In this document: in pieces, positions 192 through 55,086 of the stretch
How positions within the stretch are numbered: position 1 is the stretch's first letter
Layout of the letters: each line of letters opens with the position of its first letter
Source of the DNA: Rhodospirillaceae bacterium UBA4468
Lineage (GTDB): Bacteria > Pseudomonadota > Alphaproteobacteria > Rhodospirillales > Casp-alpha2
Direction of reading: 5' to 3'
Assembly: GCA_002389385.1 (NCBI GenBank)
Contig: DGOK01000054.1
Location: 1,258-65,257 of the forward strand
Length of the DNA: 64,000 nucleotides
Program-made: the position numbers and the translations under genes
Notes under the pieces: generated by a model
What the model saw: the letters and a program-made list of their open reading frames with translations, nothing else
Told to the model about the DNA's origin: nothing
Databases searched by the model: none

Positions 192-1913
192 ATGCGCCAA
201 CGAAAACTTTCCCAATTTACATTCCTACTCGTCATGACCGCATTCCTCAGCGCCTGCGACGATACAATTGATATTTATGATCACCGCCGCGGTGATGCTG
301 AAAATTATATGATTGCCGTTGCGCATCCGCTGGCAGCCATCGCTGGACGAGACATACTGGCCCAGGGCGGCAGTGCCGTCGACGCGACAATTGCCGCAGA
401 AATGGTTCTAACTCTTGTTGAGCCTCAATCATCTGGCATAGGTGGCGGCGCATTCCTAGTCCATCATGATGCATCCAAATCTGAATTTGAAACCTATGAT
501 GGCCGTGAAATGGCCCCCGCCTCAGCACATCCAGAAATGTTCTTAAAAGACGACGGCACGCCCATGGATTGGCCAGGCGTTGCCCTTGGTGGCCATGCTG
601 TTGGCGTCCCCGGACTTATTCGAATGCTCGCGATGGCACATGCCGAACATGGCGTCATGGCGTGGGAAGATTTATTCCAACCTGCGATAAAACTGGCAGA
701 AAACGGCTTCTACGTCACACCGCGACTAGCTGGTTTATTAGCGAACGATACCGAATTGCGGACTGTTCCTGGGACACGAGAGTATTTTTATCCGAACGGC
801 GAGCCCCTAGAAGAAGGTGATCTTCTTAAAAACCCGGCACTTGCAAAAGTTTTGCGCCAAGTTGCCTCAACTGGGCCCAATGCTTTTTATGCGGGCGAGA
901 TCGCAAAAGGCATTGCTCAAGCCGTCTCGAACGCCCTGGTAAATCCAACGCCTATGACACCTGGCGATCTGGCAGGCTACGTCGCAAAAAAACGCCCACC
1001 CGTTTGCGCAACCTACCGAATGCATCGCGTATGTGGGATGGGGCCACCGTCATCTGGCGGCATCCTCGTTGCACAAACATTAGGTATTCTGGATCATTTT
1101 GATCTCAGCCAGTATGAGCCGTTTTCCGTTGAGGCGGTGCATTTGATTATAGGTGCAAGCCAGCTCGCCTTTGCGGATCGTAATTTTTATGTCGCAGATA
1201 GTGATTTCATTCCAGTACCTGTCGCCGCGCTGGTCGACCCCAATTACCTGGCTGAGCGCGCAAGCCACATTGACCCAGACAAAGCGATGCAGAATGTCCG
1301 CCCCGGGCGCCCAGGACGCAGTGCATGGAACTGGCGTGCGAGCCCAGAAACTGAAAAAGGCCTGTCGACGACGCATTTCAGCGTCCGCGACCAATATGGC
1401 AATATTGCCTCGATGACTGCCAGCATTGAACGCGCATATGGCTCGAAGCATATGACACAGGGCTTTTTGTTAAATAATCAGCTGACTGATTTTTCATTCA
1501 AGCCGACACACATGGGACACCCAGTTGCGAATGCAGCGGCCCCACAAAAGCGACCTCGGAGCACCATGTCTCCTACGATTGTCTATGATGCCGATAGAGA
1601 GCCAGTTCTGGCGATTGGCTCCCCCGGAGGCTCTCGGATCGCTGGCTATACGTTAAAAGCTATTATTGGCGTCCTGGATTGGGACATGCACGTCGCCGAT
1701 GCGATCGCCACACCAAATATCGTCAGCGGTGGTGGGCCCGTCACGCTTGAGAAAGACAGCGATGCCGAAGCGCTTAAACCTGCACTTGAAGCGATGGGGC
1801 ATAAAGTGAGAATTCGACCTATGACGAGCGGTCTCCATGGGATTCATTTCCATAAAGATCACATGACAGGCGGGGCAGACCCTAGACGTGAAGGCATTGT
1901 TCTTGGTGATTAA
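192..1913 (+). CDS. ggt: gamma-glutamyltransferase, lipoprotein-type signal
   Basis: 573-aa ORF. N-terminal signal ends in the lipobox LSAC. GGT autoprocessing region EKGLSTTHFSVRD and C-terminal GSPGGSRI / GGADPRREG motifs are present. Confidence 0.9.
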   Translation: MRQRKLSQFTFLLVMTAFLSACDDTIDIYDHRRGDAENYMIAVAHPLAAIAGRDILAQGGSAVDATIAAEMVLTLVEPQSSGIGGGAFLVHHDASKSEFETYDGREMAPASAHPEMFLKDDGTPMDWPGVALGGHAVGVPGLIRMLAMAHAEHGVMAWEDLFQPAIKLAENGFYVTPRLAGLLANDTELRTVPGTREYFYPNGEPLEEGDLLKNPALAKVLRQVASTGPNAFYAGEIAKGIAQAVSNALVNPTPMTPGDLAGYVAKKRPPVCATYRMHRVCGMGPPSSGGILVAQTLGILDHFDLSQYEPFSVEAVHLIIGASQLAFADRNFYVADSDFIPVPVAALVDPNYLAERASHIDPDKAMQNVRPGRPGRSAWNWRASPETEKGLSTTHFSVRDQYGNIASMTASIERAYGSKHMTQGFLLNNQLTDFSFKPTHMGHPVANAAAPQKRPRSTMSPTIVYDADREPVLAIGSPGGSRIAGYTLKAIIGVLDWDMHVADAIATPNIVSGGGPVTLEKDSDAEALKPALEAMGHKVRIRPMTSGLHGIHFHKDHMTGGADPRREGIVLGD

Positions 1914-3349
1914 ATTTCGTCAGTAATCGGCGATGGATGCTCTTCGATATCGCTGGGCAAGATAATCTGAAAAGTCGTTCCATTCTCATCACTTCGGGTC
2001 AACGTGATCTCGCCCCCATGCTCGTGAACGATATCGCGAACAATAACCAAACCAAGGTCCGTACCGCCTTTTCTGCTGGAGCTGGAAAACGGTTTGAACA
2101 AGTTCTCACTTGCTTTTTCAGACAACCCAGGACCGTTATCAGTTACATCAATAATAATCGTTTCATCTGAGAATCTTGAGGTGATTATGAGTTTTGCACC
2201 ACCCGCCTGAACCGCATTGCTGCACAAATTCGCGATACCGCGAAGTAAATGCCGACGGTCAGCCACAATATCTAACTCGGGATCAATATTTATATCCCAA
2301 ACTGTTTCAGAAAAATCATCCGAAAGTGACAAGTTGCTGCGCACTTCTTCGATAGGGTCATACAATCCAAATCGCCGCGGGCGTAATACCAAAGCATCAT
2401 CGGCTGCGTAGTTCAGAGTTTGGCGAAACAGATCAATCGCGCGGTCGATGGCCTTCATCAGGCGCGGCGTCACGCGCTTTACTTCTGGGTCTTCAATGTA
2501 TTGCAGCTTATCCGAGACCAAAACGGCGGTCGCAAGTGTATTTCGGAGATCGTGATTGATCTTGGCCATCGCCCCACCAAGAGCTGCCATGCGCCCTTGC
2601 TGTTTGAGAGATAGCTGAACTTGGCGCTGCATCTCAGCGAGCTCTAATTGAGCCGTTCCAATTTCATCACTGCGACCTGTGGGCGCAATAATTTTTGTTG
2701 CGTCTTCAGTATTGTCACTAAAACTCATCATAGACCGCGTAATGCGTTGGATAGGACGTACAATCATCCATTGCAGCGAGATATATACCATGGTCGCGGT
2801 GATAAATGAGATGACAATCGAAAGATTTAAAATGCGCGCGGAGAAATCAAACATCGCGTTGCGCATGGTCCGTTCTTCAAAAAGAACCTCAACAACGGCA
2901 TCGGGTTGTCTGGGCGGCATGCCAACCGCACGGATAACCCGATTGTCCGTGCGCAACATCGTATCGAAAGCATCAAAGACCAGCCCAACGAATGAAATAT
3001 CACGCATATCAACAGTAAGATCGACGGCCAGTGGCATATCCCCACCAACCATCAGCATCTTGCGATCTTCCCGCGCCACAATAATGGCCAAGGCATCTGT
3101 CTGAAATAAAAGTTCGTTCTCAAGGTCCTGATTGGGCTGTGTTTCGGGCATGGCATTCAATGCCAGTATCGCAAGGTGCGCACAACCAATATAGTCTTCC
3201 ATTTATGCCAATCGGAACCAGGCGATAGATGGCGTCCAGATCAAGACTTCTGCGAGCATCACAAAACTGACGGTCAGAATCAGAAGCCGTGTCGATAGGT
3301 TTACAAATCTTCTTGGCATCGATTTTTTTGTCTGATCTGCTTCGCTCAT
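1910..3349 (-). pseudogene. sensor histidine kinase interrupted by in-frame TAA at 3203..3205
   Basis: ORF 1910..3202 has the H-box INHDLRNTLATA, N-box NLCSNAVQAG, G1 DNGPGL and G2 GGTDLGL. A 48-codon ORF at 3206..3349 (MSEADQTKKSMPRRFVNLSTRLLILTVSFVMLAEVLIWTPSIAWFRLA, one TM helix) lies in the same frame, separated only by TAA, which is followed directly by ATG. Confidence 0.7.
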
Positions 3350-3367
3350 TGGTTTTCCAGCACTACT

Positions 3368-5988: not shown

Positions 5989-6393
5989 ATGTCTACGTCC
6001 CCTACATTGCCACACATCACCCGCATAAAGCGGCGGCGTGATTTTTTGGCAACTGCTGGCGCAAGACGTAAGTGGGCAACAACGGGAATGGTTGTTCAGG
6101 TTCGCAAGCGCAGACCCGGTGAAGCCGGGGATGATCTTGTGCGTGTTGGCTTTACAACCAGCCGCAAAGTGGGCAACGCCGTGATGAGAAACCGCGCACG
6201 CCGCAGATTGCGTGCATGCGTGGACGCCGTACTTCCGGGTATTGTTAAACCCGGCCTAGACATTGTCATCATCGGTCGTGCCGCGACCACAGCAAGACCG
6301 TTCGACGCCCTAAAGGATGATTTCTTGAAAAGCTTGAAGAAATTAGATGCCGTTGATCGTATTACCGATGAGGTATCATGCAATGGCGTCTAA
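5989..6393 (+). CDS. rnpA: ribonuclease P protein component
   Basis: Basic 134-aa protein (RIKRRRDFL ... [21 protein letters not shown]) directly downstream of rpmH. Start placed at the ATG at 5989. Confidence 0.85.
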
Positions 6394-6658
6394 AATCATC
6401 GCATGGCCGTTTCGCGCCTTAATCGCTATTTATCAATACTGCATATCCCCATTTATCGCGGGAGCATGCCGTTTTCACCCAAGCTGTTCTGCTTATGCAG
6501 ACGAATCATTTCAAACGCACAACGCATTCAAGGCAAGTATTTTGACTTTGAAACGTATCAGTCGTTGCCACCCCTGGGGGGGTTCGGGATACGATCCCGT
6601 CCCCGCAGCAATTGCGGTCGACAATGATGACCGAAAAGGGAGCCCCGAACGCTCATGA
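6383..6658 (+). CDS. yidD: membrane protein insertion efficiency factor YidD
   Basis: [23 protein letters not shown] ... [14 protein letters not shown]. Overlaps the rnpA end and the yidC start (ATGA). Confidence 0.85.
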
Positions 6659-10035: not shown

Positions 10036-10125
10036 CGGACACCTTAAAGGCGTCGAACAAAATCGATTTGCCACACGAGGTCTTTTTACGGGACCGGGTA
10101 TTCACCATTATTTGCATAGAGCACC

Positions 10126-11343
10126 TTACCCGCTTAAATGCCGGCCAATTGTTCTTGCACGATCTCGGCCGTGTTTGCTGAAAGGCTCGCCCGCCAAGAA
10201 ATGGCTAGACAGCCTTTTGCATTTTTTTGCGGCGCATGTCCGTTCAACAATGCGTAAAGACAAATCAGACATCACTGCAATCATCGCCATTGCGAGCTTT
10301 TTCTGACCTTCATTAATCGTATTAATGACTTCGGCCTCATCAAGCTTTCCATCAGCCCACATTTTAGCAGCGCGATCAAATTCGGTATCATCGTCAACAC
10401 TCATGCCACTTTGAACGCCATCAGATGAGCCCAGAGCATCAGGCATAACCGCTTCGCCATCACCTAAACGTTTGTGAACCACATCTCGAACTGCCGCATA
10501 TGCTTTTGGCGACAGATCTTTTCGTGCGGCCATGCGTTTCAATATATCATCAGCAACAAAGCGCGCTATTTTCACCGCCGCCGATGTAGGAAGACGCGGC
10601 CGCATAGCAAGGGGCTTATGCCAAAGGTTAATCTGATCCGCTTGATCAATAACTTTGCTTAATGTCTCTTCACGAATTTGTGCACTATCGTTCCCCAAAA
10701 GAAGCGCAATTGCATCCGTATCTGAACTATCAACAATGGCGCTGGAAACAGCATTGGAAACATTTTCCCGCTGAGAAACCGTCTGAGTGCAACCTTCTGA
10801 AGGCTTAGCGCGAATAATTTCGATTAAGTCTTCATCGTTGAGTATCAGCGAAAACTGCAATGCCGGCGTTGCCACGGCTGCTTCAACATCCCATGCAAGC
10901 CTGCGGATGACGTCTGGCGGCGCGTTAGCCACATCCCGTAAAGCCTCAGACAGTATCTGCCGCACGCGTGTCGCTTGATCTTTTGCCAATATAGATAATG
11001 CATCATATGTCATGTGGCGCAGACGATTTTGTTCGTCGGCGGTCAATCCAGGTGAAAGACGCGCAATTTTCTTAGCTAAAGAACTTCGAACATTCTCATT
11101 CTTATATTTCGCTAATAACAGATCCGCATGTTCAGGTGCTGCCGTATTCGACGCTATGCTCTTGCGAACATTTGGAGAAGGGTCATCAGCAAGATAATAG
11201 AGGACTTCTCGCGGAACATCATTGCGCCCTGCCAAATCTGCGCGTGATTTTTCGTCACCATCAACGGCAAGCGCTTTGGCTTCCTCGTAAGAAATTACTT
11301 TCTTCTTTTTCTTCGACTTCTTTGAGAAAATTTTCCAAACCAT
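10126..11343 (-). CDS. alpha-helical (HEAT-like) repeat protein, probably DUF2336 family
   Basis: 405 aa. Repeated xxVR helical units, LLGNDSAQIREETL segment, lysine-rich N-terminus. Family name recalled from memory and not searched. Confidence 0.6.
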   Translation of the reverse strand: MVWKIFSKKSKKKKKVISYEEAKALAVDGDEKSRADLAGRNDVPREVLYYLADDPSPNVRKSIASNTAAPEHADLLLAKYKNENVRSSLAKKIARLSPGLTADEQNRLRHMTYDALSILAKDQATRVRQILSEALRDVANAPPDVIRRLAWDVEAAVATPALQFSLILNDEDLIEIIRAKPSEGCTQTVSQRENVSNAVSSAIVDSSDTDAIALLLGNDSAQIREETLSKVIDQADQINLWHKPLAMRPRLPTSAAVKIARFVADDILKRMAARKDLSPKAYAAVRDVVHKRLGDGEAVMPDALGSSDGVQSGMSVDDDTEFDRAAKMWADGKLDEAEVINTINEGQKKLAMAMIAVMSDLSLRIVERTCAAKKCKRLSSHFLAGEPFSKHGRDRARTIGRHLSG

Positions 11344-14401: not shown

Positions 14402-14531
14402 TAAACGTACCTGTCCCCCATTTCCGCTAGAATATATACTAGAAGATGCTTTCCGCCCGTGCCAGCCTACTATTAAATGTTTTCTGAATCAGCTTGTCAG
14501 TGATCGTTTATACCCGTTAATTAAACGTACT

Positions 14532-15254
14532 ATGGAATCAAACGACACAAATAAAACCCCACATCGCATCCGCCAAAGCCCTGACGAGCTTATGGCAGCC
14601 GAAGTATGGATTTTTGACCTCGACAACACGCTGTACCCAGCCGCTTCAAAACTTTTTGATCAAGTCGACTGGAACATGACGCGCTTTGTCGGAGAATTAC
14701 TTAATCTCGAGCAAATTGAGGCGCGGAAACTGCAAAAGCAGTATTTTCGTGAGTACGGAACAACAATGCGCGGCCTCATGACATGCCATGATGTCGATCC
14801 AAAAGAATTTATGGACTACGTCCACGATATCGATTTGGCGCCAATCTCCGCAAACCCGATTTTAACGGAAGCCCTGGCTAAACTCCCCGGGCGCAAAGTC
14901 ATCTATACCAACGGCACCACAACACACGCCGAAAACATTACCCAGCACCTGCAGATTGACCATCATTTTGAAGGTTGTTTCGATATCATCGATGCTGAAT
15001 ATGTACCAAAACCTGCAACAGGCCCTTATGAAACTTTTTGTGCGCGATTTGATATAGATCCCAAAACCGCCATCATGGTTGAGGATATGGCACGCAATCT
15101 GGTGCCCGCTGCTGCACTGGGCATGACCACGGTCTGGCTCGATACAGACGTTGACTGGGCGCGTGATGGCGCAGAACACGGTCATGTCCATCACCGGACA
15201 GTCGATATTGCCACATGGCTCAATGATGTCGTCTCCGGCGTGCAGCCGAGTTGA
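14532..15254 (+). CDS. HAD-superfamily pyrimidine 5'-nucleotidase-like hydrolase
   Basis: Motif [10 protein letters not shown], motif II YTNG, C-terminal MVEDMARNL. Confidence 0.8.
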
Positions 15255-19042: not shown

Positions 19043-19197
19043 GGCAAGATTATCCGTCGAAGCTTGAACTCAAAAATTATTGGTTACTAGGGTATTTCTG
19101 TTAATGTAGCTAAATTGTCAAACGCAGGGAAATTCTGATGCAAGAAGATGATCGATCTTCTATCCTCATTCAGAACGAACGAGATTAGTTACATATC

Positions 19198-20157: not shown

Positions 20158-20177
20158 GTAGCCTGAGCAGCCAAACC

Positions 20178-32164: not shown

Positions 32165-32190
32165 AGCAGAACCATCAATCAGAAACTTGC

Positions 32191-43822: not shown

Positions 43823-44544
43823 GCTAAGCCCGTCCAGATCATTGAACCTCCTGAGATGACCAGCATGATATCAAGCAGGTAGTCGAAGGTCCGCACGCTC
43901 ATCCGGTCGACAAAGTACTTTCCAATAAACGAGCCTGCCATGATGGTGCCGCCGACGATCAACCCTTGAACGATTTGTGGCCAGGGGAGCGCACCAAAAT
44001 GCTGGAATGTCGCGACTTTGCTGATCATTAAAGCTAGAGACGCCACCGCTTCGGTCGACAACAATGTGCCTTTGCTTAAACCCACGGCTGCAAATGCTGG
44101 AATGCTGAGTGGCCCGGTCGAAATCACGATGCCTGTGAGGAATCCGATGCCACCACCGATGATGGCCAGTTGCCACAACGGCAGATTAAAATCTCGCACA
44201 CGCATCCATCGTCGAAGCGGGATCATACCAAGAAAGAAAAAGCCTAGTGCAAGTTCGACGACGCTTGCTGGTAACGTCAGTAACGTTCGGGCACCAAGTG
44301 CGGCGCCCGGCGCACCAAAGCATGTATAAGCCCAAAAGGCGCGCCAGTGGATTGCACGCCACCAGGCGAGCGCCTTACCAATATTCCCGACCACCGAAGC
44401 GACAGCCATGATCGGCACGGCTTGTTGTGGACCGAACTGTAAAATGAGAATTGGCAGTAAAATGATTGAGGCGCCCGTGCCGATAATGCCGCTCAATGTT
44501 CCCGACGCCAGACCCGCTAAAAGAACAAAAACGTAACCGGTCAT
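43816..44544 (-). CDS. TauE/SafE-family anion exporter membrane protein
   Basis: 242 aa, about 7-8 TM helices, internally duplicated GxGGG-type segments (GIIGTGASIILLP / IIGGGIGFLTG). Confidence 0.7.
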   Translation of the reverse strand: MTGYVFVLLAGLASGTLSGIIGTGASIILLPILILQFGPQQAVPIMAVASVVGNIGKALAWWRAIHWRAFWAYTCFGAPGAALGARTLLTLPASVVELALGFFFLGMIPLRRWMRVRDFNLPLWQLAIIGGGIGFLTGIVISTGPLSIPAFAAVGLSKGTLLSTEAVASLALMISKVATFQHFGALPWPQIVQGLIVGGTIMAGSFIGKYFVDRMSVRTFDYLLDIMLVISGGSMIWTGLAQ

Positions 44545-45350
44545 ATGACGCCGTAGGCAACCATCAGCAAGAATACACCCAGAATCACACGATAAATCAC
44601 AAATGGTGTAAATGATGCGCGCTTTAACCAGGCCATCATAATCGCGATCGCGATCAGCGCGAATCCAAACGCCAGCCCTGCCGCAATAAACACGTCTGAG
44701 GCTAATTCGACACTGCCACTTTCATAAAGATCGAGGCCACTTAAAGTCCCTGCTGCAATGATCGTTGGGATCGACAGCAATAAAGAAAATCTGGCCGCAT
44801 CCACCCGTTCCATTCCAATGAAGCGCGCCGCCGTCATCGTAATACCTGACCGACTGGTTCCTGGAATCAATGCAAGGCACTGAGCCGCACCAATGAACAA
44901 CACGTCGAGAATTCCTAAATGCTCAATCCGCCGCACCGTCATACCGACTTGATCTGAGATCCAGAGTAAAAGACCAAAGCCAAGCGTTGCCCACGCAATG
45001 ACTTCCAGACTTCTAAACATACCAGGGAAATATTGGTGTAACGCGTATCCAGCACAAACGACGGGAATGGTTCCAATAACAAGCAGACCAAATAATCTAG
45101 CGCCAGGAGCTGAACGGCCACGCATAAACATGATGACACCGCCCACCATGGAGCCAACATCGCGGTATAAGTAGACGAGAACGGCGAACAGCGTTCCAAC
45201 ATGGACAGCAACGTCCATGATGAGCCCTTGGTCAGGCCAACCTAAGAATTGTGGGACCAAAACAAGATGGCCCGACGAACTTATCGGCAAAAATTCCGTA
45301 AGTCCCTGAACAGCAGCTAAAATAGCAAGATGTAGGATCGGCATGCACAC
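44541..45350 (-). CDS. uppP: undecaprenyl-diphosphate phosphatase
   Basis: LTEFLPISSSGHL and PGTSRSGITM motifs. GTG at 45350, or ATG two codons downstream. Confidence 0.9.
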   Translation of the reverse strand: MCMPILHLAILAAVQGLTEFLPISSSGHLVLVPQFLGWPDQGLIMDVAVHVGTLFAVLVYLYRDVGSMVGGVIMFMRGRSAPGARLFGLLVIGTIPVVCAGYALHQYFPGMFRSLEVIAWATLGFGLLLWISDQVGMTVRRIEHLGILDVLFIGAAQCLALIPGTSRSGITMTAARFIGMERVDAARFSLLLSIPTIIAAGTLSGLDLYESGSVELASDVFIAAGLAFGFALIAIAIMMAWLKRASFTPFVIYRVILGVFLLMVAYGVI

Positions 45351-45630
45351 CCCTCACAAGGCCTTGTAATCAATACCGCGATTGTGATGCCCTGCCAATC
45401 ATCAAATTAGTCAATAAATAGGACTAATTGCACTTATTTATACTCAATTTCTCCAATTCCACGGCAATATAAATATATTCATTGCGCAAACCGCCATAAA
45501 TTAGTAAAAAATACTGACCTAATGACCATGATCCGTTATCCAACGCCACTTTGCGATAAGAGTTTTGCATGGTTCTGGCGAAATAACGAAGATTGCAGCG
45601 TGGTAAAACAGTGTTTCGGAGGGACTTTAA

Positions 45631-47097
45631 ATGCCAGATCGCATGCAACAATTCATCAATATTGATGGCTCGATGCCTGATAAACGCAACGCTGATAAAC
45701 GCCGCGAAGACTTCGATGAAATTTATGATGAATACAGTGCTGAAGGTGCTGTCGAACAGGCTTCACGGTGCGAGCAATGTGGCATTCCTTACTGTCAGGT
45801 TCATTGTCCGTTACAAAACAATATTCCAGATTGGCTCCAGCTTGCAACCGAAGGGCGTCTGCAAGAAGCCTATGAAGTCTCACAAGCAACGAATACGTTT
45901 CCTGAAGTCTGCGGGCGCATTTGCCCACAAGACCGATTGTGTGAAGGATCCTGTGTGCTTGAGCAATCTCGCCATGGCACAGTGACGATTGGTGCTGTTG
46001 AGAAATACATTACCGATACCGCATGGAAAGAAGGCTGGGTTAAGGCCCCCGTGGCCCGCACCGAGCTCGAGCAATCCATTGGCATTATTGGTGGTGGCCC
46101 AGCAGGCCTTGCAGCGGCTGAACGACTTGTCACGTTAGGGTATCAGATTCACGTTTACGACCGATATGATCGCATGGGCGGCCTGATGATTTATGGTATC
46201 CCTAACTTTAAGCTTGAGAAAGATATTGTTGAGCGTCGCACCAAACTATTGGCCGATGGTGGCATTATTTATCATCATGAATTTGAAGTTGGACGCGACG
46301 CATCCCTTGAAGACTTGAGAGAAAAGCACGACGCTGTTTTGATCGCGACGGGCGTCTACAAGCCGCGCGAACTCCCAGCGCCGGGTTCTGGTTTGAAAAA
46401 TATTTTTGCAGCGATGGATTTTCTGACCGCATCAAATCGCAAGGGCCTTGGCGATGCCGTCCCTATGTTTGATGACGGCACGCTGAATGCAAATGGTAAA
46501 AACGTTGTCGTTATTGGCGGCGGCGACACCGCAATGGATTGCGTACGAACAGCCGTACGCCAAGGTGCAAAGACGGTCAAATGCTTGTATCGACGTGACC
46601 GCGCGAATATGCCCGGCTCACAGCGAGAAGTCTCTAACGCAGAAGAAGAAGGCGTCGAATTTGTCTGGCTCTCGGCACCAGAGGCTTTCCACGGCAAGGA
46701 CCACGTTGAGGCCGTCCAGGCACATCGCATTCACTTGGGGATTGCCGACATCACTGGTCGCCAAACACCTGAGCCTATTCCAGATTCAAGCTTTAATCTG
46801 GATGCTGACATTGCAATCAAAGCTCTTGGCTTCGATCCAGAAGACCTGCCAACGTTGTTTAATGCACCAGAACTTGGGGTCAGCAAGTGGGGCACGATCA
46901 ATGTTCAAGAGCCAAACAAAATGACGAATCTCGAAGGTGTCTTTGCCGCAGGAGATATTTATCGCGGTGCGTCTCTTGTTGTTTGGGCCATCAAAGATGG
47001 ACGCGATGCCGCTGACGGCATTCATCAGTATGTGCAGAACAAGAAATCTGAGCAACTCGGTCGAGATATCGACGAATCTCTTCGGGAGGCAAGTTGA
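45631..47097 (+). CDS. gltD: glutamate synthase small subunit
   Basis: 488 aa. Fe-S cysteine clusters (CEQCGIPYC…CP, CGRICPQDRLCEGSC) and two dinucleotide folds (GGGPAGLAAA, VIGGGDTAMDC). Confidence 0.95.
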   Translation: MPDRMQQFINIDGSMPDKRNADKRREDFDEIYDEYSAEGAVEQASRCEQCGIPYCQVHCPLQNNIPDWLQLATEGRLQEAYEVSQATNTFPEVCGRICPQDRLCEGSCVLEQSRHGTVTIGAVEKYITDTAWKEGWVKAPVARTELEQSIGIIGGGPAGLAAAERLVTLGYQIHVYDRYDRMGGLMIYGIPNFKLEKDIVERRTKLLADGGIIYHHEFEVGRDASLEDLREKHDAVLIATGVYKPRELPAPGSGLKNIFAAMDFLTASNRKGLGDAVPMFDDGTLNANGKNVVVIGGGDTAMDCVRTAVRQGAKTVKCLYRRDRANMPGSQREVSNAEEEGVEFVWLSAPEAFHGKDHVEAVQAHRIHLGIADITGRQTPEPIPDSSFNLDADIAIKALGFDPEDLPTLFNAPELGVSKWGTINVQEPNKMTNLEGVFAAGDIYRGASLVVWAIKDGRDAADGIHQYVQNKKSEQLGRDIDESLREAS

Positions 47098-47528
47098 TGT
47101 TAGCAAAAGGCGGTTGTCTCTGCGGGGAGGTCCGCTTTTCAGCACCTGACGAGGTCGTTGAAGTTGGTGTTTGCCATTGCAACATGTGCCAACGTTGGTC
47201 CGGCGGGCCAGGCTTTGCTACGCATTCAGGCAAAGCCCCAAAGATCGAAGGCGCTGAAAATATTAAATGGTACCGAAGTTCAGAATGGGCTGAGCGCGGC
47301 TTCTGCAATGAATGCGGCAGCAATCTATTCTATCGTCTAGGCGGCGATGAGCCTCAATATTCTTGTTTCGCAGGACCATTTGACGATCAAAAAAAATTCA
47401 AACTCGCAGCGCAAACCTTTATCGAAGAAAAACCAGATTACTACGCCTTTGCTGGCGACATTCCATCGATGACCGGCGCCGAAGTTTTTGCCATGTTCGC
47501 GCCATCCAGCAACAGTTCTGAGGGATAA
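47094..47528 (+). CDS. GFA-family (glutathione-dependent formaldehyde-activating / CENP-V-like) zinc protein
   Basis: 144 aa. CLCGEVRF, CHCNMCQRWSGGP and the later CNECGS cysteine pattern. Overlaps the gltD stop (ATGA). Confidence 0.8.
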   Translation: MMLAKGGCLCGEVRFSAPDEVVEVGVCHCNMCQRWSGGPGFATHSGKAPKIEGAENIKWYRSSEWAERGFCNECGSNLFYRLGGDEPQYSCFAGPFDDQKKFKLAAQTFIEEKPDYYAFAGDIPSMTGAEVFAMFAPSSNSSEG

Positions 47529-47532
47529 AATT

Positions 47533-50500
47533 ATGAGCGATAAAAATATCGAAACGGGAAAAGAATTCGTCAGAAACTGGCAGCAAAACGCAGACCATCT
47601 TGAAAAAACAGGAATGTACAATCAGGATGAAGAGCATGCGTCATGTGGCGTAGGCATGATTGCAGCGATGGATGGCACACCGAGCCGTCGTGTTGTTGAA
47701 TCTGGAATCGAGGCGCTTAAGAAAATCTGGCATCGTGGTGCCGTAGACGCCGATGGTAAAACCGGTGATGGCGCTGGTATCCATGTTCAAATTCCCTGGG
47801 AATTTGTAAAAGAGCATATTCGCTACACTGGCCATGAGCCGGGTGATTCAAAAATTGCTGTCGGCATGATTTTTCTGCCAAAAGCCGATCTTGGTGCGCA
47901 GGAAGTATGCCGAAGCATTGTTGAGACAGAAGTCCTTCGTGCAGGATACAGCATTTATGGTTGGCGACAGGTTCCTATCAACGTCGAGGTTATCGGCGAA
48001 AAAGCCAATGCATCACGCCCTGAGATTGAGCAAATCATGCTCTCAACAAGTCCTGACGTGACGTATGAAGACTTTGAACGCGATCTTTATGTCGTTCGCC
48101 GCCGCATTGAGCAGCAAGTCTTAAACGAACACATCAATGACTTTTATATCTGCTCTTTGAGCTGTCGTTCCGTTGTCTACAAAGGCATGTTCCTGGCCGA
48201 ACAGCTGACGTCATTCTATCCAGACCTACTGGACGAGCGTTTCATCTCAAATTTTGCGATCTATCACCAACGGTATTCAACGAACACGTTCCCAACGTGG
48301 CGCCTTGCTCAGCCATTTCGGATGCTCGCGCACAATGGTGAAATTAATACGCTGACCGGCAACGTCAAATTGATGCAATCGCACGAACCTAAAATGGCGT
48401 CGCCTCTATTCGGCGATAACATTGAAGACTTGAAGCCTATCATTCCAAAGCGGAGCTCTGACTCTGAAGCACTCGACAGTGTGTTTGAACTTTTATGTCG
48501 TGCCGGGCGACCTGCGCCGATGGTCAAAGCAATGACGATCCCTGAATCCATTGCACAGAACAAAACGATGCCCCCTGAACATGAAGCCTTGTTCTCATAT
48601 TGTAATGCTGTGCTCGAGCCTTGGGATGGTCCCGCAGCGATCTGCGCACATGACGGACGCTGGGTTATCGCTGGACTCGACCGTAATGGCCTTCGTCCTA
48701 TGCGGTTTGTGACGACAAAAGACGGACTATTAGTTGTCGGCTCTGAAGCCGGCATGGTGGAAATTCCCGAAAGCGATATTACCGAAAAAGGCCGCTTAGG
48801 GCCTGGTGGTATGATCGGCATCAATCTGGAAGATGGTAAATTTTATCACGACAATGAGCTCAAATCCCTGATCGCCAAGCGAGGCGACTTTGGCAAATGG
48901 GTTGAGCGCACCCAAATTCTAGACGAATTGATCAAAGCCGATGATGTCAAAGGCAGCCGCTTGACGCGTGAAGAATTACGTCGTCGCCAGCATTGCTTTG
49001 GCCTGAGCATGGAAGACATGGAGATGATTCTCCAGCCCATGATTGAAGGTGGAAAAGAAGCGACAGGATCAATGGGTGATGATGCGCCATTGGCTGTCCT
49101 TTCGGATCGCCATCGCGGCATGCATCATTTCTTTCGCCAAGCCTTTAGCCAGGTAACGAACCCACCGATCGACAGCTTGCGCGAACGCCGCGTCATGAGT
49201 TTGAAGACGCGTCTGGGGAACCTCGGCAACATCCTCGAAGAAGAACCGACCCAGTGCGACCTTCTCCAGTTGGAAAGCCCTGTCCTCAGTAACACAGCAT
49301 TCGAAGCCATGAAACGTTACATGGGTGACACCGCAGCCGAAGTTGACTGCACGTTCACGCCAGATGGCCCCAACTCACTGACAAACGCCTTAATCCGTAT
49401 CCGCCAAGAGGCCGAAGCCGCTGTGCGTGAGGGCAAAACACACCTTGTATTGTCCGACATGAATACAGGCGAAGGCCGTGCCCCTGTGCCAATGATCTTG
49501 GCAGCTGGTGGTGTCCACACTCATTTGGTTCGTGAAGAATTACGGACGTTTACGTCGATCAATGTGCGGTCATCAGAATGTCTCGATGTTCATTATTTCG
49601 CTGTACTGATTGGTGTTGGCTCGACAACCGTCAACGCTTACCTCGCAGAAGAAGCGATCTACGACCGCCAACGGCGCGGACTGCTGGGTGATATCAGCGT
49701 CGAAGCAGCTGTTGAAAACTTCAAAACAGCGATTGATCAAGGTTTGCTCAAAATCATGTCTAAGATGGGCATTGGCGTTTTGAGTTCTTACCGGGGTGGG
49801 TACTGTTTTGAGGCCGTTGGTTTATCACGCGCCCTTGTTGCAGAATTTTTCCCAGGCATGTCATCGCGGATTTCAGGCATTGGCTTGTCAGGTATAAAGA
49901 AGAATATCGCAGCAATGCATAAAGATGCATATCAAGCGGATGCGATCCCACTGCCCGTTGGTGGCTTCTATAAGTTCCGAGCCGGCGGCGAGCGTCACGG
50001 CCATGACGGCAAGCTGATCCATGTCTTACAGACAGCGGTCGGCAATGAATCCTACACACTCTATAAAAAATACGCCAAGGGTGTTCAGTCCCGCGAGCCT
50101 ATCTATTTACGCGACCTGCTGGACTTCAAGCCGGATCGTAGAAGCATTAGTGTTGAACGCGTTCAAAGTGTCACAGAAATCAGGAAGCGCCTGGTCGCAC
50201 CTGGCATTTCGCTTGGCGCGCTGAGCGTCGAAGCACATGAAACGCTATCCATCGCGATGAACCGGATTGGCGCGAAGTCAGATTCTGGTGAAGGTGGCGA
50301 GGATCCTGCGCGTTTCCAACCGCGCCCAAACGGTGACAACCCATCCAGCGCCATCAAGCAGATTGCGTCCGGTCGCTTTGGTGTTACGGCTGAATATCTA
50401 AATAACTGTCGTGAGATCGAGATTAAGATCGCACAAGGTGCAAAACCTGGCGAAGGTGGCCAGTTACCTGGGTTCAAAGTAACATCAATGATCGCCAAGT

Positions 50501-52086
50501 TGCGTCATGCGACAGAAGGTTTGACGCTGATCAGCCCACCGCCGCATCACGACATTTACTCTATCGAAGACCTGGCACAGCTTATCTATGACTTAAAACA
50601 GATCAACCCTGATGCAAGCGTCTGCGTTAAGCTTGTTGCCCGCTCCGGCGTTGGCACCATCGCTGCGGGTGTCGCCAAAGCAAAAGCTGATGTCATTTTA
50701 ATATCGGGCCATGATGGCGGCACAGGTGCGAGCCCACAAAGCTCAATCAAATATGCAGGTATTCCATGGGAAATGGGGCTTTCTGAAGCTAACCAGGTCC
50801 TGACCCTGAACCGTTTGCGCCATAAAGTTAAACTCCGCGTCGATGGCGGTTTCAAAACTGGTCGTGACGTAGTGATGGCTGCAATGCTGGGCGCTGACGA
50901 ATTTGGTATCGGTACCGCGTCTCTGGTCGCAATGGGATGCATCATGGTGCGTCAATGCCATTCCAATACGTGTCCAGTTGGCGTCTGTACCCAAGATGAA
51001 GCGCTACGTAAAAAATTCACCGGCACACCTGAAAAAGTTGTGAACCTGTTCTCGTTTGTCGCCGAAGAGGTCAGTGAGATTCTGGCATCACTCGGATATG
51101 AAACATTACATGATATTACCGGTCGCTCAGATTTGTTGGCTCAGGTAAGCCGAGGTGCTTCGCACTTGGATGATCTTGATCTCAATCCGTTGTTGCAACA
51201 AGCCGATAGTGGTGGCTATCCACGTTACTATAACGGCGAAGGCCGCAATGAAGTTCCTGACTCATTGGATGCATTAATCATCAAAGACGCGATGCAAACT
51301 TTTGAGCATGGAGAGAAAATGCAACTCACCTATGCCATACGGAATACGGACCGCGCTGTCGGTGCCAGAACCAGTTCACTGATTACCCGCAAGTACGGTA
51401 TGTCGACACTTGATCATAATCACCTGACCGTTCGGCTTCGCGGTTCTGCCGGGCAATCCTTGGGCGCATTTGCCGTGCAAGGTTTGGCGCTCGAGGTTTT
51501 GGGGGATGCTAACGATTATGTTGGTAAGGGCCTGTCTGGCGGCACGATCGTTCTCCGCCCGCCTGTATCTAGCCCCTTGGAAAGCGAAAAGAATACAATC
51601 ATCGGCAACACAGTGCTTTATGGCGCAACCGCGGGGCGTTTATTTGCCGCGGGCCAAGCGGGTGAGCGGTTCTGTGTCAGAAACTCTGGTGCCACTGCTG
51701 TTGTCGAAGGTTGCGGCTCTAACGGGTGTGAATACATGACCGGGGGGATGGTTGTCATTCTAGGTGCTGTAGGCTCAAACTTTGGCGCAGGCATGACCGG
51801 CGGTATGGCCTTCATTTATGACACCGAAAATGCTTTTGATCATCAAGCCAATCCGGAAACGATAACTTGGAATCGCGTTGAAACTGAATACTGGCAGGAG
51901 GTGCTTAAAATTCAAATTCAGCAACATGTTAAGCGGACACATTCTAAGCACGCGTTACGATTGCTGAATGCCTGGGAGCGTAAATTACAAAACTTTGTAC
52001 AGGTTGTTCCCCATGAGATGCTTTCTAAGCTTGAGCATCCGGTGACATTAAAAGAAGAAGCCAACATGAAAACAGCGGGCGAATAG
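47533..52086 (+). CDS. gltB: glutamate synthase large subunit
   Basis: 1517 aa from the ATG at 47533. Ntn amidotransferase N-terminus …HASCGVGMIA, FMN/3Fe-4S central region, and a C-terminal GXGXG beta-helix domain. Confidence 0.97.
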   Translation: MSDKNIETGKEFVRNWQQNADHLEKTGMYNQDEEHASCGVGMIAAMDGTPSRRVVESGIEALKKIWHRGAVDADGKTGDGAGIHVQIPWEFVKEHIRYTGHEPGDSKIAVGMIFLPKADLGAQEVCRSIVETEVLRAGYSIYGWRQVPINVEVIGEKANASRPEIEQIMLSTSPDVTYEDFERDLYVVRRRIEQQVLNEHINDFYICSLSCRSVVYKGMFLAEQLTSFYPDLLDERFISNFAIYHQRYSTNTFPTWRLAQPFRMLAHNGEINTLTGNVKLMQSHEPKMASPLFGDNIEDLKPIIPKRSSDSEALDSVFELLCRAGRPAPMVKAMTIPESIAQNKTMPPEHEALFSYCNAVLEPWDGPAAICAHDGRWVIAGLDRNGLRPMRFVTTKDGLLVVGSEAGMVEIPESDITEKGRLGPGGMIGINLEDGKFYHDNELKSLIAKRGDFGKWVERTQILDELIKADDVKGSRLTREELRRRQHCFGLSMEDMEMILQPMIEGGKEATGSMGDDAPLAVLSDRHRGMHHFFRQAFSQVTNPPIDSLRERRVMSLKTRLGNLGNILEEEPTQCDLLQLESPVLSNTAFEAMKRYMGDTAAEVDCTFTPDGPNSLTNALIRIRQEAEAAVREGKTHLVLSDMNTGEGRAPVPMILAAGGVHTHLVREELRTFTSINVRSSECLDVHYFAVLIGVGSTTVNAYLAEEAIYDRQRRGLLGDISVEAAVENFKTAIDQGLLKIMSKMGIGVLSSYRGGYCFEAVGLSRALVAEFFPGMSSRISGIGLSGIKKNIAAMHKDAYQADAIPLPVGGFYKFRAGGERHGHDGKLIHVLQTAVGNESYTLYKKYAKGVQSREPIYLRDLLDFKPDRRSISVERVQSVTEIRKRLVAPGISLGALSVEAHETLSIAMNRIGAKSDSGEGGEDPARFQPRPNGDNPSSAIKQIASGRFGVTAEYLNNCREIEIKIAQGAKPGEGGQLPGFKVTSMIAKLRHATEGLTLISPPPHHDIYSIEDLAQLIYDLKQINPDASVCVKLVARSGVGTIAAGVAKAKADVILISGHDGGTGASPQSSIKYAGIPWEMGLSEANQVLTLNRLRHKVKLRVDGGFKTGRDVVMAAMLGADEFGIGTASLVAMGCIMVRQCHSNTCPVGVCTQDEALRKKFTGTPEKVVNLFSFVAEEVSEILASLGYETLHDITGRSDLLAQVSRGASHLDDLDLNPLLQQADSGGYPRYYNGEGRNEVPDSLDALIIKDAMQTFEHGEKMQLTYAIRNTDRAVGARTSSLITRKYGMSTLDHNHLTVRLRGSAGQSLGAFAVQGLALEVLGDANDYVGKGLSGGTIVLRPPVSSPLESEKNTIIGNTVLYGATAGRLFAAGQAGERFCVRNSGATAVVEGCGSNGCEYMTGGMVVILGAVGSNFGAGMTGGMAFIYDTENAFDHQANPETITWNRVETEYWQEVLKIQIQQHVKRTHSKHALRLLNAWERKLQNFVQVVPHEMLSKLEHPVTLKEEANMKTAGE

Positions 52087-52133
52087 ACACGATCAAGGTT
52101 TGCAAACTTTTAGTCTCGGCATAGAATCGCTGC

Positions 52134-52853
52134 ATGTCTAAACGCCCACTCATTGGTTTACTCTTGGATTACGAGCATCAAGGCTCGTTTTCTAAACGCC
52201 CACATTACGCAATCCGCACCGCATATTTTGATGCGATCTGGAAAGCAGGCGGCTTGCCTGTCGGTCTTCCTTATGTGGCAGAAGCACGGGCAGACTACCT
52301 GAACACGATTGATGGATTGATTGTCCCTGGTGGGTTCTATCCATTCCCACCTGAGATTTATAGCCTCCCGGCTGATGGTAGCCCCGTCCATCCACGTTTT
52401 GAGTTCGAGCAAACGCTCATGATCCAGGCGTTAGATAAAGACCTGCCAACACTTGGCGTTTGTGCAGGCCTACAAGTCATGGCTGTCGCTAGAGGCGCCA
52501 CGATTTGGTCAGATATTGCCAATCAATTGGATTGTGCCGTCGATCATTTGAATGAAAAACCCGCAGAAGAAGCTGCGCACGCGATAACTATTGAGCAAGG
52601 TACCAAGCTTTTCCGCATTGCCGGTGCCACAGAAATTTCAGTGAATACTGCACACAATGAAGCGCTGCGCGTTATTCCTGATGGGATCACGGTGAGTGCA
52701 CGCGCGCCCGATGGAATTGTTGAAGCCATAGAACTCCCCGACCGCCGCTTTGCAATTGGTGTTCAATGGCACCCTGAGTTCTTCTTGGATGATGGCGATC
52801 CGAATTTGGGTCTGTTTGAGGCATTGGTTCGCGCTGCCGGAGACGATCGTTGA
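52134..52853 (+). CDS. class I glutamine amidotransferase-like peptidase C26 (gamma-glutamyl-GABA hydrolase family)
   Basis: Nucleophile elbow GVCAGLQVM and VQWHPE histidine motif. Confidence 0.8.
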   Translation: MSKRPLIGLLLDYEHQGSFSKRPHYAIRTAYFDAIWKAGGLPVGLPYVAEARADYLNTIDGLIVPGGFYPFPPEIYSLPADGSPVHPRFEFEQTLMIQALDKDLPTLGVCAGLQVMAVARGATIWSDIANQLDCAVDHLNEKPAEEAAHAITIEQGTKLFRIAGATEISVNTAHNEALRVIPDGITVSARAPDGIVEAIELPDRRFAIGVQWHPEFFLDDGDPNLGLFEALVRAAGDDR

Positions 52854-53683
52854 GCGATAGCCCTGTTAATATTATTGGCGTTGCTGGCTGCGGCAATATG
52901 GGCCTTTCCATGGCAGAGAACCTTTTAGCTAATGGCTACGATGTATGGGGGTATGACATTCGTTCCATCAATGCGTCCGACGATTTCCAAAACCGGATGA
53001 TCAGTAATGCTCGCACGTTTGCATCGAAAGTTAATACCGTCATTTCGGTCGTGCGCGATATCGCTGAGACCAACGCCCTGCTGTTTGATGATCAGGCGAT
53101 CATGTGTAGCCCTAACTATCCTACATCACTCATCATTTCATCAACGTTATCACCTCGCTTTATCCATGACCTGAAAGATCGCATCCCTGATGATGTTGTG
53201 TTGATAGATGCCCCTATGTCAGGAACCTCTTACCGCGCAAAACTTGCCACGCTGACGTTTATGGTTGGTGGTGAGGCTGATCACGTTCAACGTTTGATGC
53301 CAATACTTGGCGTTATGGGATCGGATATTCATCACCTTGGCCCCGTTGGCGCCGGGGCTGCGTGTAAAGTCGCAAACAATCTTTGTGCCGCAGCTGGTAT
53401 GGTGGCTGTCAGGCGTGCACTTGCGGCAGCCAAAGGCTACGGGATACCGCAAGATAAGTTACTCGATGTTATGCGGACAAGTTCCGGCAGTACATGGTAC
53501 GGAGACAACTTTACTGACATCGACTGGGCACGTGAAGGTTATGCGCCAACCAATACTATGGGGATCGTCGAGAAAGACGTGAAGAGCTTCGTTGATGCCT
53601 TAGAGGGACTGGCTGGCATTGAGTCTGGTGCGCTAGAAGACACCATCATCGAAGAAATTCGCAAGCTGGAGCCTTTAATATGA
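52850..53683 (+). CDS. NAD(P)-dependent oxidoreductase, 3-hydroxyisobutyrate/6-phosphogluconate dehydrogenase-like
   Basis: N-terminal Rossmann motif GVAGCGNMG, DAPMSG, and GAGAACKVANN. Confidence 0.75.
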   Translation: MSDSPVNIIGVAGCGNMGLSMAENLLANGYDVWGYDIRSINASDDFQNRMISNARTFASKVNTVISVVRDIAETNALLFDDQAIMCSPNYPTSLIISSTLSPRFIHDLKDRIPDDVVLIDAPMSGTSYRAKLATLTFMVGGEADHVQRLMPILGVMGSDIHHLGPVGAGAACKVANNLCAAAGMVAVRRALAAAKGYGIPQDKLLDVMRTSSGSTWYGDNFTDIDWAREGYAPTNTMGIVEKDVKSFVDALEGLAGIESGALEDTIIEEIRKLEPLI

Positions 53684-54072
53684 GCGACCATTCATCTTCA
53701 TCAAACTATTTGGTGGCAGCGGCTGCATTGTCTGCATTGATTGGCGTTGCCGTCGGCGGATACGGTGCGCATGGTCTGAACGCCAACGAGAGCCTGACGA
53801 GCATGTGGGAGACTGGCGTTACCTATCAAATTTGGCACGCGTTAGGTGCCTTTGCAGCAAGCTGGCTTGCATCTACACGCGAAGCGCATACAAGAAAAAT
53901 TGTGACGGCTGGTGGATGGTGTCTTGTTCTTGGGTCTCTGAGTTTCTCCGGATCGTTATACTTTTTTATAATCGATAGTATCTTTCCATTTCCAATGCTC
54001 GCTCCAATCGGCGGAACTGTGATGATGCTTGGATGGGGTGGCATTGTGTATGGCGCACTCCGACGTCGATGA
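53680..54072 (+). CDS. DUF423-family small membrane protein
   Basis: 130 aa, four TM helices, GGYGAHGL and QIWHALG motifs. Confidence 0.7.
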   Translation: MSDHSSSSNYLVAAAALSALIGVAVGGYGAHGLNANESLTSMWETGVTYQIWHALGAFAASWLASTREAHTRKIVTAGGWCLVLGSLSFSGSLYFFIIDSIFPFPMLAPIGGTVMMLGWGGIVYGALRRR

Positions 54073-54195
54073 TTTTACTCGAGGATTATTGCTAAATCCG
54101 TAGACGCGTTTTTCTCCTTCTCGACGCAGGGCACGAACAAGTCCAATGTCTAAGGTCGTTGACTGTGTTCTAATTGGACTTTTTCTCTGAACGAT

Positions 54196-55086
54196 TTGGC
54201 TGTGATGGTTGAATCAATGCCCGGTGTTTATGACGCGCATAAAACACTCTTTGATCGCTTTGAAATTTTTTCCATCATCTTTTTTAAAATTGAGTATTTG
54301 TTCCACGTTTGGTCTTCTGTCGAAAGTCATAACCCACGCTTTAAGTCCTCAATCAAAGGTCGCCTTCGCTACATGCTCACACCGCTGGCATTGATCGATC
54401 TTATCGTCATCTTACCCTTTTACGTGAGCGCACTCGTCGGTGTGGACTTGAGAATGCTCCTTGCTCTACGTCTTTTAAGGGTCTTTAGACTGACCCGTTA
54501 TGCAAAGTCGATGAACATGCTTCTACAAGTACTTCGCGATGAAGCCCCGATTATTTCTTCAGCTTTGTTTGTCTTATTGATGCTGATTTCTGTTGCCGCC
54601 AGCATCACATACCTGGCCGAGCATGAGGCACAGCCCGAGGCGTTTGCATCGATCCCCCATGCACTCTGGTGGGCCGCCGTCACAATGACGACCATTGGTT
54701 ATGGCGACGTTGTGCCTGTGACGCTTATCGGGCGCATTTGCGCAGCTGCGATTGGTATTGTCAGTGTGGGAATGGTTGCCTTACCTGCGGGTATCCTGGC
54801 ATCCGGCTTTAACGAGGCCCTACATAAACGTCGCAAGCAATATGAAGATGTCGTCGACACCGCACTCCAGGATGGCGTCATTGATCCAAACGATCATGAA
54901 CAACTTCGTATCGTACAAGAAGAGCTGGGGCTATCTGCTCATGAAGCCGCAAACATGCTCAAAGCTGGTTACCGTAAAATATCTACAGGCACGGAGATTT
55001 GCGGACATTGTGGCAAAACAGTTTTACGTCCGAAAGACCCCGATGACAGTGGTGGCACTAGTCATCGAGTTTCCAAGTTCGACTAG
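54196..55086 (+). CDS. voltage-sensor-type K+ channel (ion transport family); N-terminus possibly frameshifted
   Basis: S4-like LRLLRVFRLTRYAK, selectivity filter TTIGYGD, inner helix, and a cytoplasmic tail. The predicted S1 helix is split between two frames (see finding). Confidence 0.8.
   Translation: MAVMVESMPGVYDAHKTLFDRFEIFSIIFFKIEYLFHVWSSVESHNPRFKSSIKGRLRYMLTPLALIDLIVILPFYVSALVGVDLRMLLALRLLRVFRLTRYAKSMNMLLQVLRDEAPIISSALFVLLMLISVAASITYLAEHEAQPEAFASIPHALWWAAVTMTTIGYGDVVPVTLIGRICAAAIGIVSVGMVALPAGILASGFNEALHKRRKQYEDVVDTALQDGVIDPNDHEQLRIVQEELGLSAHEAANMLKAGYRKISTGTEICGHCGKTVLRPKDPDDSGGTSHRVSKFD

Follow-up and report, generated by a model that had tools for sequence, protein, structure and literature searches.

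The DNA analyzed here is a stretch of 64,000 nucleotides (contig DGOK01000054.1, positions 1,258 to 65,257, of the assembly of Rhodospirillaceae bacterium UBA4468) from an uncultured marine alphaproteobacterium, and is referred to below as the window. About 65 ancestral genes can be recognized in it, of which 8 are disrupted and another 2 are absent, giving 10 affected genes (~15%). The affected genes encode a membrane-bound sensor histidine kinase (HK), a diguanylate cyclase with PAS and GGDEF domains, a PAS_5 protein, two DUF2336 paralogs (DUF2336_a and DUF2336_b), a pentapeptide-repeat protein (PRP), a K+ channel, a conserved hypothetical protein (the orphan), and, probably, a pair consisting of an EamA transporter and an AsnC/Lrp regulator. 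The analysis covers this one window and the contigs homologous to it, and leads to the conclusion, held with a probability of about 85%, that the pseudogenes are genuine and fixed in a nearly clonal marine lineage, in which dispensable genes decay under lost constraint and the core remains intact.

Disrupted and missing genes in the window

The census of lesions was made by codon-by-codon comparison with syntenic relatives together with targeted alignments. Syntenic DNA was available from four sister lineages, namely R1 (Logan SRR23274242, ~86% nucleotide identity), R2 (SRR23272334, 88-89%), R3 (SRR23272335), and L182 (SRR23272296, 93%), and from conspecific strains represented by L191 (99.7% identity), L188, L189, and L190 (99.1%, with L188 at 99.07% and L188/L189 forming a sister strain from SRR23274240), L091 (98.5%, a single 4.4-kb Logan contig), and L092 (97.1%, a single 6.1-kb JGI contig). 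Outgroups were provided by about 20 family-level relatives with ~69% nucleotide identity, drawn from species-representative genomes and from metagenomes. The intact GGDEF protein, used to scan the GTDB species representatives, gave family-level relatives only (~69% nucleotide identity), and a metagenome scan with ArgB gave, among the matches listed, one close contig (L092) and otherwise distant ones. Intact orthologues could be compared at 99% (the K+ channel in L188), 93%, 88%, and 86% identity. The population data were drawn from exact-protein look-ups, and in such look-ups the broken fragments fall into 90%-identity clusters alongside full-length versions. The relatives are labelled Thalassospiraceae and the public metagenome-assembled genomes of the clone 'Rhodospirillales bacterium'; the family-level relatives have genomes of 3.9-4.4 Mb, and gene order in the window is perfectly collinear with that of all relatives compared.

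Table 1. Positions of the disrupted genes, the gap, and two neighboring features in the window (numbering from the first nucleotide of the window).
Feature	Position	Strand	Ancestral length	Lesion or remark
Sensor histidine kinase (HK) pseudogene	1910-3349	-	479 aa	TAT→TAA, codon 49 (3203-3205)
DUF2336 (SpbR-like) paralog b pseudogene	10044-11343	-	432 aa	A6→A7 frameshift (10222-10228); nonsense codons in the ancestral frame, TCA→TAA (10134-10136) and GAA→TAA (10086-10088)
DUF2336 (SpbR-like) paralog a pseudogene	11368-12645	-	425 aa	Two 1-bp frameshifts: deletion at 12296 (TT→T), insertion in the A-run 12131-12136 (A5→A6); stop in the shifted frame (12235-12237)
PAS-PAS-GGDEF diguanylate cyclase pseudogene	12689-14401	-	570 aa	CAA→TAA, codon 378 (13268-13270)
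Conserved hypothetical (orphan)	19138-20157	+	339 aa	TCG→TAG, codon 17 (19186-19188)
Pentapeptide-repeat protein (PRP) pseudogene	25596-26867	+	423 aa	CGA→TGA, codon 340 (26613-26615)
PilZ gene	26906-27205			Intact; adjoins the PRP gene
PAS_5 (MopJ-like single-domain PAS) pseudogene	29022-29579	-	185 aa	TAC→TAG, codon 76 (29352-29354)
Small SRP RNA	31373-31470	-		Rfam RF00169, 59.8 bits; just upstream of dnaX
Junction of 1.39-kb gap	32077-32190	.		Breakpoints ~32112-32131; EamA transporter and AsnC/Lrp regulator at this site in R2
6-TM K+ channel (Ion_trans) pseudogene or truncation	54096-55086	+	330 aa	Start ATG→ATC (54096-54098); two 1-bp deletions, near 54143 and 54181

The lesions are listed in Table 1. 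At five of the stops (HK, PAS-GGDEF, PRP, PAS_5, and orphan genes), the ancestral sense codon differs from the stop by one base, and in the first four of these genes translation past the stop continues in frame with family-typical sequence. Pfam assigns the intact orthologues to HATPase_c/HisKA/HAMP, PAS plus GGDEF, Pentapeptide, PAS_5, DUF2336, and Ion_trans; the orphan matches no Pfam or NCBIfam family. The HK stop sits between the first transmembrane segment and the remainder of the protein and is directly followed by an ATG, the stop in the cyclase gene is placed just ahead of the GGDEF domain, and that in the PAS_5 gene falls within the PAS domain. In the orphan, an open reading frame (ORF) of 319 aa restarts at TTG 19198, and it is less certain whether this locus is a dead gene or encodes an N-terminally shortened protein. 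The K+ channel, which is intact at 330 aa in L188, has lost its N-terminus and S1 helix in the window, with a 293-aa ORF left from position 54205. At the site of the gap, R2 carries the EamA and AsnC/Lrp genes in divergent orientation and the R3 gene table places the pair at the same position; what remains at the junction in the window is 11 nt from the 3' end of EamA and ~40 nt from that of AsnC, and both genes are absent from all five clone loci that span the site (5/5).

The other ~55 genes contain neither an in-frame stop nor a frame-breaking indel when compared codon by codon with syntenic relatives, and they include gltB, gltD, yidC, dnaX, the trp genes, an ABC transporter operon, and several hypothetical genes. 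A preliminary description of this DNA had stated that the housekeeping genes were free of lesions, which this comparison bears out. The same description had listed the in-frame stops TAA 3203 (HK), TAA 13268 (PAS-GGDEF), TGA 26613 (PRP), and TAG 29352 (PAS_5), two frameshifts in a DUF2336-like paralog, and, as weaker candidates, the N-terminus of the K+ channel and TAG 19186 in the orphan. All of the listed stops are present, both frameshifts were recovered (12296; 12131-12136), and the two weaker candidates proved to be real derived lesions; its census fell short at the second DUF2336 paralog, which had been taken as intact, and at the two-gene gap of 1.39 kb, which had been missed.

Derived lesions and neutral change

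The exact broken proteins or fragments occur on 99-184 contigs each in NCBI, JGI, ENA, and Logan, and the broken sequences are listed in 230-278 index blocks. In 13 assemblies, 15 loci match the window at 99.92-99.98% identity and bear the same lesions, with 5-18 single-nucleotide polymorphisms (SNPs) per ~21 kb among them. The lesion-bearing population is thus real and nearly clonal. Each of the eight disrupted genes is one uninterrupted ORF in R1, R2, R3, and L182 (the HK at 479 aa in R1, R2, and R3, and the PAS_5 gene in all four), sense codons stand at all of the stop sites in the sister lineages, and the HK, GGDEF, DUF2336_a, DUF2336_b, and orphan genes are uninterrupted in the ~20 family-level relatives, at full length apart from the HK, which in most of them is cut by the ends of the locus. 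The lesions are therefore derived and fixed in the clone.

Substitutions were polarized with one or two outgroups, and the ratio of nonsynonymous (N) to synonymous (S) changes expected under neutrality is ~2.6 given the observed mutation spectrum. On the window branch, the broken genes carry 18N/2S versus 1N/3S in intact genes when L091 is the sister (Fisher p = 0.018) and 13N/5S versus 9N/19S when L092 is the sister (Fisher p = 0.015), and all differences between the window and L191 amount to 13N/6S in broken and 4N/14S in intact genes (Fisher p = 0.008). The HK alone differs from L191 by five nonsynonymous and no synonymous changes, and the remaining ORF of the K+ channel has accumulated 10N/1S on the window branch with L188 as the sister. 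Over the longer time since the split from R2 (R1 as outgroup), N/S in the broken genes is 174/326 for the window branch versus 90/295 for the R2 branch (p = 2.7e-4), and in the intact genes no significant difference in N/S was found between these two branches. Judged against the neutral value, purifying selection has been lost for the GGDEF, DUF2336_a, DUF2336_b, HK, and K+ channel genes; in the PRP, PAS_5, and orphan genes the signal points the same way but is weak. Whole-gene pairwise dN/dS (the ratio of the nonsynonymous to the synonymous substitution rate) against R2 barely separates broken from intact genes and lies at 0.05-0.12 in the broken ones, because inactivation is recent and came after most of the 0.5 dS divergence had built up. 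The broken genes evolve at neutral N/S on both sides of the lesions, and motif residues are among those altered: the G2 box of the HK has changed from GGTGLGL to GGTDLGL (base 2058), a change that L191 shows to postdate the stop, and the GGDEF-domain motif downstream of the cyclase stop has changed from FKRVND..GH to LKRVNN..GQ. These replacements would indirectly support the absence of a functional product.

Several of these genes have also been hit independently or repeatedly in other strains. L091 retains the ancestral CAA at codon 378 of the GGDEF gene and has its own stop at codon 490 together with a change of GGDEF to VGDEF; in DUF2336_a, it is ancestral at both frameshift sites of the window and carries its own GAA→TAA at codon 163 and a 1-bp insertion at the equivalent of window position 11567. 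In DUF2336_b, L092 has none of the three lesions of the window and its own nonsense codon near codon 288, and L191 shares the two stops with the window and lacks the A6→A7 frameshift. Within the clone, the subclones P0048, P0049, P0056, and P0058 have acquired an extra nonsense codon at codon 65 of DUF2336_a, and the T-run at 26498-26504 of the PRP gene, upstream of its TGA, is T7 in the window, T8 in L185, and T6 in L186, the T8 variant of L185 being accompanied by 15 further similar places. The additional hits in subclones are confined to genes already broken. The strains have no inactivating mutation in common, and loss of constraint therefore probably preceded the individual lesions.

The gene next to the PRP pseudogene encodes a PilZ protein, a receptor of cyclic di-GMP (c-di-GMP); the window, R1, R2, and L182 all have it in intact form. 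In R3 (L083, 12378-12620), it has an internal deletion of ~80 nt with a change of frame, an independent lesion in another lineage, and its N/S is high on the window branch (11/12) and on the R2 branch (7/13).

Selection along the lineage and alternative explanations

The sister strain with the intact K+ channel (L188/L189) allows the recent branch of the window to be compared with its nearest counterpart. With R2 as outgroup, the window branch has gained 111 substitutions and the sister branch 21, so that the former is five times longer than that of the 99% sister, and 74% of its substitutions are GC-to-AT (C-to-T 57%, C-to-A 17%). N/S in intact genes is 63/60 on the window branch versus 4/29 on the sister branch (p = 4.7e-5), which corresponds to ~2 times as many synonymous and ~16 times as many nonsynonymous changes. 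At aligned sites (44096-59660 against L188; 32486-52865 against L189), GC content is 49.96% in the window, 50.47% in the 99% sister, and 50.50% in R2, and the value of the window, lower by 0.5 points, fits the GC-to-AT-biased substitutions on the branch of the clone. The branches of L091 and L092 are likewise AT-biased and rich in nonsynonymous changes. Recombination imports were considered as a source of the long branch and rejected, since they would give a low N/S and a balanced spectrum. Taken together, the branch comparisons point to weakened purifying selection across the lineage, core genes included. Selective 'streamlining' accounts for the data less well than drift, a bottleneck, or a mutator phase, because core genes also show the raised N/S and the GC-to-AT bias.

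These data revise the causes that the preliminary description had put forward. Relaxed selection and ongoing gene loss agree with the neutral N/S of the broken genes; laboratory passage, which had been offered as another cause, does not agree with the matches in environmental metagenome assemblies from many samples. Relaxation on environmental sensing is present, as that description had held, but it is not limited to sensing genes, given the raised N/S and GC-to-AT bias in the core, and streamlining, another of its suggestions, fits less well.

According to the explanation preferred here, a dispensable set of genes would have lost selective constraint, and its decay would have proceeded by ordinary point mutation and homopolymer slippage. 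The clone may have passed through a period of weak purifying selection, owing to a bottleneck or a clonal sweep and possibly with a raised mutation rate, in which lesions would become fixed quickly. Nonsense and frameshift mutations in essential genes would still be purged by selection, and the housekeeping genes would be untouched because such mutations are still removed from them; lesions would appear only in dispensable genes because selection against the full loss of essential functions holds, and not through any peculiarity of the mutations themselves. The avoidance of housekeeping genes by lesions has the same origin, since purifying selection yields that pattern in any case.

Adaptive loss of function is the first alternative to be weighed. 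Inactivation of the sensing and c-di-GMP genes may have been favored in a pelagic niche, either as a planktonic lock or as a saving of cost, and may have driven a sweep of the clone. The same genes have been struck independently in three conspecific strains, the near-clonal population is compatible with a sweep, and a parallel exists in Caulobacterales, where SpbR, mopJ, and dgc genes have been lost convergently (PMC12700997). The N/S of some broken genes also lies above the neutral value (18/2 and 10/1), but this excess is not significant (p = 0.08 and 0.31), neutrality rather than selection predicts repeat hits in genes already dead, and the raised N/S and GC-to-AT bias of core genes on the same branch indicate inefficient selection and not adaptive tuning. 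Adaptive loss, which is compatible with decay under lost constraint and not exclusive of it, is considered unlikely as the cause, with roughly one chance in five.

An episode of hypermutation, owing to a repair defect encoded outside the window, could have produced the long, AT-biased branch and the burst of lesions instead of a small effective population size, and this is given about the same low standing. It would be in keeping with the excess of both synonymous and nonsynonymous changes over the sister branch, with the dominance of C-to-T and C-to-A changes, and with the origin of several lesions by homopolymer slippage. However, N/S is not raised by a higher mutation rate alone, so that weaker selection would still be needed, and GC-to-AT change is the general mutational bias of bacteria. 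The recR, rmuC, and dnaX genes in the window are intact, and the bias towards AT and nonsynonymous changes is similar on the L091 and L092 branches.

A third alternative holds that the interrupted genes still function, through readthrough or suppression of the stops, through reinitiation at the HK TAA-ATG, or as naturally split halves. In programmed readthrough, recoding, and split genes, in-frame stops are likewise followed by family-typical coding sequence, and here long ORFs persist 3' of the stops and the whole-gene dN/dS given above is still low. The preliminary description had drawn attention to a C at the +4 position after three of its four firm stops and to the ATG abutting the fourth, and had left room for partial readthrough or reinitiation. 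The count of three in four is numerically right, but the +4 bases over all seven premature stops are C, C, C, A, A, G, and T, so that no enrichment is seen (C in 3/7, p = 0.24), and the contexts themselves are inherited, TAT-ATG, CAA-C, CGA-C, and TAC-C being ancestral sequences altered by one base. Programmed systems also differ in that the stops found here are unconserved and comprise all three stop codons, with no recoding element in the window (its one Rfam match is an SRP RNA, and it contains no tRNA). A changed genetic code, which had been judged unlikely from the outset, remains so, as all three stop codons also end intact genes in this tRNA-free window. No relative has a two-ORF architecture, the orthologues being single ORFs of 479, 570, 423, 185, 425, and 432 aa; a check of relatives' orthologues and of the substitutions around each stop, both proposed in the preliminary description, accordingly gave uninterrupted genes in R1, R2, R3, and L182 and neutral or higher N/S upstream and downstream. 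Purifying selection downstream of the stops is not maintained, since recent-branch changes there are predominantly nonsynonymous, with motif residues among them. Mutation of the HK G2 box and of the GGDEF motifs followed the appearance of the stops, and additional stops and frameshifts build up in the same genes. Readthrough or reinitiation as raised earlier is not supported by these observations, and functionally maintained readthrough or natural split genes are very unlikely.

Consensus or base-calling errors in the source assembly, for which three indels in short homopolymers (A6→A7, A5→A6, and TT→T) would be a typical context, can be dismissed almost completely, given that the same lesions recur in 13 independent assemblies made with different assemblers from different sources, that the exact broken proteins lie on so many contigs, that the five stops listed in the preliminary description are single-base substitutions outside homopolymers, and that contigs which do bear errors scatter their indels over housekeeping genes. 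The last point comes from three long-read-style contigs of the clone (L175, L178, and L179; 'contig_N', ERZ106466xx), in which argB, def, fmt, and nupC are split by 1-bp indels (at window-equivalent positions such as 9699, 12611, 12924, and 19904-22694). These scattered indels are probably long-read assembly errors, and the pattern they form is unlike the reproducible lesions of the window. The earlier view that the lesion pattern reflects biology and not base-calling is upheld by the recurrence of the same lesions in hundreds of independent assemblies.

Against decay under lost constraint in a lineage with weakened selection, a number of points have to be set. The signal of relaxed selection is modest for the PRP gene (N/S 13/25 versus 4/19 against L182) and for the PAS_5 gene (7/12 versus 3/8 against L182), and for the orphan it is seen on the long branch only (24/54 on the window branch versus 5/46 on the R2 branch). 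Polymorphism within the clone (84 SNP alleles) shows no difference in N/S between broken (14/9) and intact (32/24) genes, although this comparison is uninformative because its timescale is too recent. The private lesions of L091 and L092 could in principle be assembly errors, and none of them lies in an intact gene. The gap at the EamA/AsnC site is probably a deletion, judging from the gene remnants at its junction and with its polarity set without an outgroup. The 319-aa orphan ORF, the 293-aa channel ORF, and the 377-aa PAS-only fragment of the cyclase could retain some activity. No inserted elements, insertion sequence (IS) expansion, or rearrangements are found in the 64-kb window, weak selection that is 'genome-wide' is an extrapolation from this window and its homologous contigs, and the idea of a lost polarity and motility module, discussed below, draws on distant homology, with the matches to SpbR and MopJ far below their cut-offs.

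Other observations concern neighboring genes. The small signal recognition particle (SRP) RNA listed in Table 1 precedes dnaX in the usual order ffs-dnaX-ybaB-recR; the 636-aa ORF listed for dnaX crosses this RNA, and the real start, as in the relatives, is ATG 31348. The HAD-hydrolase gene at 14421-15254 has different starts among relatives (277, 243, and 240 aa), with TTT and AAA in the window at the positions of the longer starts, which is most likely annotation variation and not a lesion. In rnpA, yidD, and a GFA-domain gene (6046-6658; 47097-47528), dS against R2 is 0.14-0.18, as opposed to ~0.5 in neighboring genes, and this may reflect recent recombination between lineages. Upstream of the first gene of the window, a 2OG-Fe(II) oxygenase gene lies between panB and the gamma-glutamyltranspeptidase gene in R3 (L087, 2289-3338) and not in R2 (L088, 2962-3540), so that gene content varies among 'healthy' sister lineages too.

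Relation to known cases of gene loss

The affected genes are not a random sample of dispensable genes. The DUF2336 proteins match the SpbR profile with 143 and 157 bits against an NCBIfam cut-off of 400, and the PAS_5 protein matches MopJ with 29.9 bits against a cut-off of 200; judged from these scores, the similarity is one of homologous domain families (DUF2336 and PAS_5) and not of equivalogs. MopJ is a regulator of motility and of CtrA (PMC4432633), and SpbR, mopJ, and dgc/pleD cyclases have been lost convergently in Caulobacterales that lost the flagellum and the holdfast (PMC12700997). The Caulobacterales case resembles the present one in that the kinds of genes overlap, with SpbR (DUF2336), MopJ (a single-domain PAS protein), GGDEF cyclases, and associated kinases in common, and it differs in that it belongs to another order, the present lineage being Rhodospirillales or Thalassospiraceae-like with distant homologues, and in that the genes are absent there whereas they remain as pseudogenes here. 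By this likeness, a regulatory module for the motile and sessile states, linked to c-di-GMP and cell polarity, may have become useless in this species, which is the likely reason for the lost constraint, and may now be undergoing dismantling, and the K+ channel, the PRP, the orphan, and the EamA/AsnC pair would be further accessory casualties. Literature on DUF2336, and on Thalassospiraceae together with Helgoland, yielded nothing useful.

The closest known situation is the build-up of pseudogenes in recently bottlenecked, niche-restricted clones such as Shigella, Yersinia pestis, Salmonella Typhi, Mycobacterium leprae, Burkholderia mallei, and Sodalis. The window resembles them in its many recent pseudogenes, each bearing one or only a few lesions, in its very low diversity, in the lineage-specific rise in dN/dS with GC-to-AT bias, and in losses that concern sensing, regulation, transport, and accessory functions and leave the core intact. 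It differs from them in being from a marine organism known from metagenomes and in lacking IS expansion and rearrangement within its 64 kb.

For marine bacterioplankton, the relative roles of streamlining and drift in genome reduction are debated, as in SAR11, Prochlorococcus, and pelagic Roseobacter (PMC10837832; bioRxiv 10.1101/2021.01.15.426902). The window shares with these a pelagic setting and losses among signal-transduction genes, regulators, and transporters. Classic streamlined genomes, however, have very few pseudogenes and are the product of ancient reduction, whereas the decay seen here is recent (within 1-3% divergence), with visible pseudogenes and signs of weak selection. A tentative suggestion, regarded as less probable than not, is that an abundant free-living (or newly dependent) clone has been caught at the first stage of drift-driven reduction, with its conspecifics independently dismantling the same module.

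For annotation, the consequence is that these loci are to be labelled pseudogenes and not sequencing errors, recoding sites, or split genes. The phenomenon is known and the event ordinary, and what the window adds is a new and unusually well-resolved case caught in progress, in which the order in which lesions struck a gene is recoverable, independent lesions are present in the same genes of conspecific strains, and selection on the core genes of the same branch is weakened as well. If this were true genome-wide, the lineage would provide a direct test of drift versus selection in early marine genome reduction and a rare present-day natural experiment on whether reduction starts by drift or a bottleneck as opposed to selection for economy, and it would suggest a module of c-di-GMP signaling, polarity, and sensing as the first to be lost.

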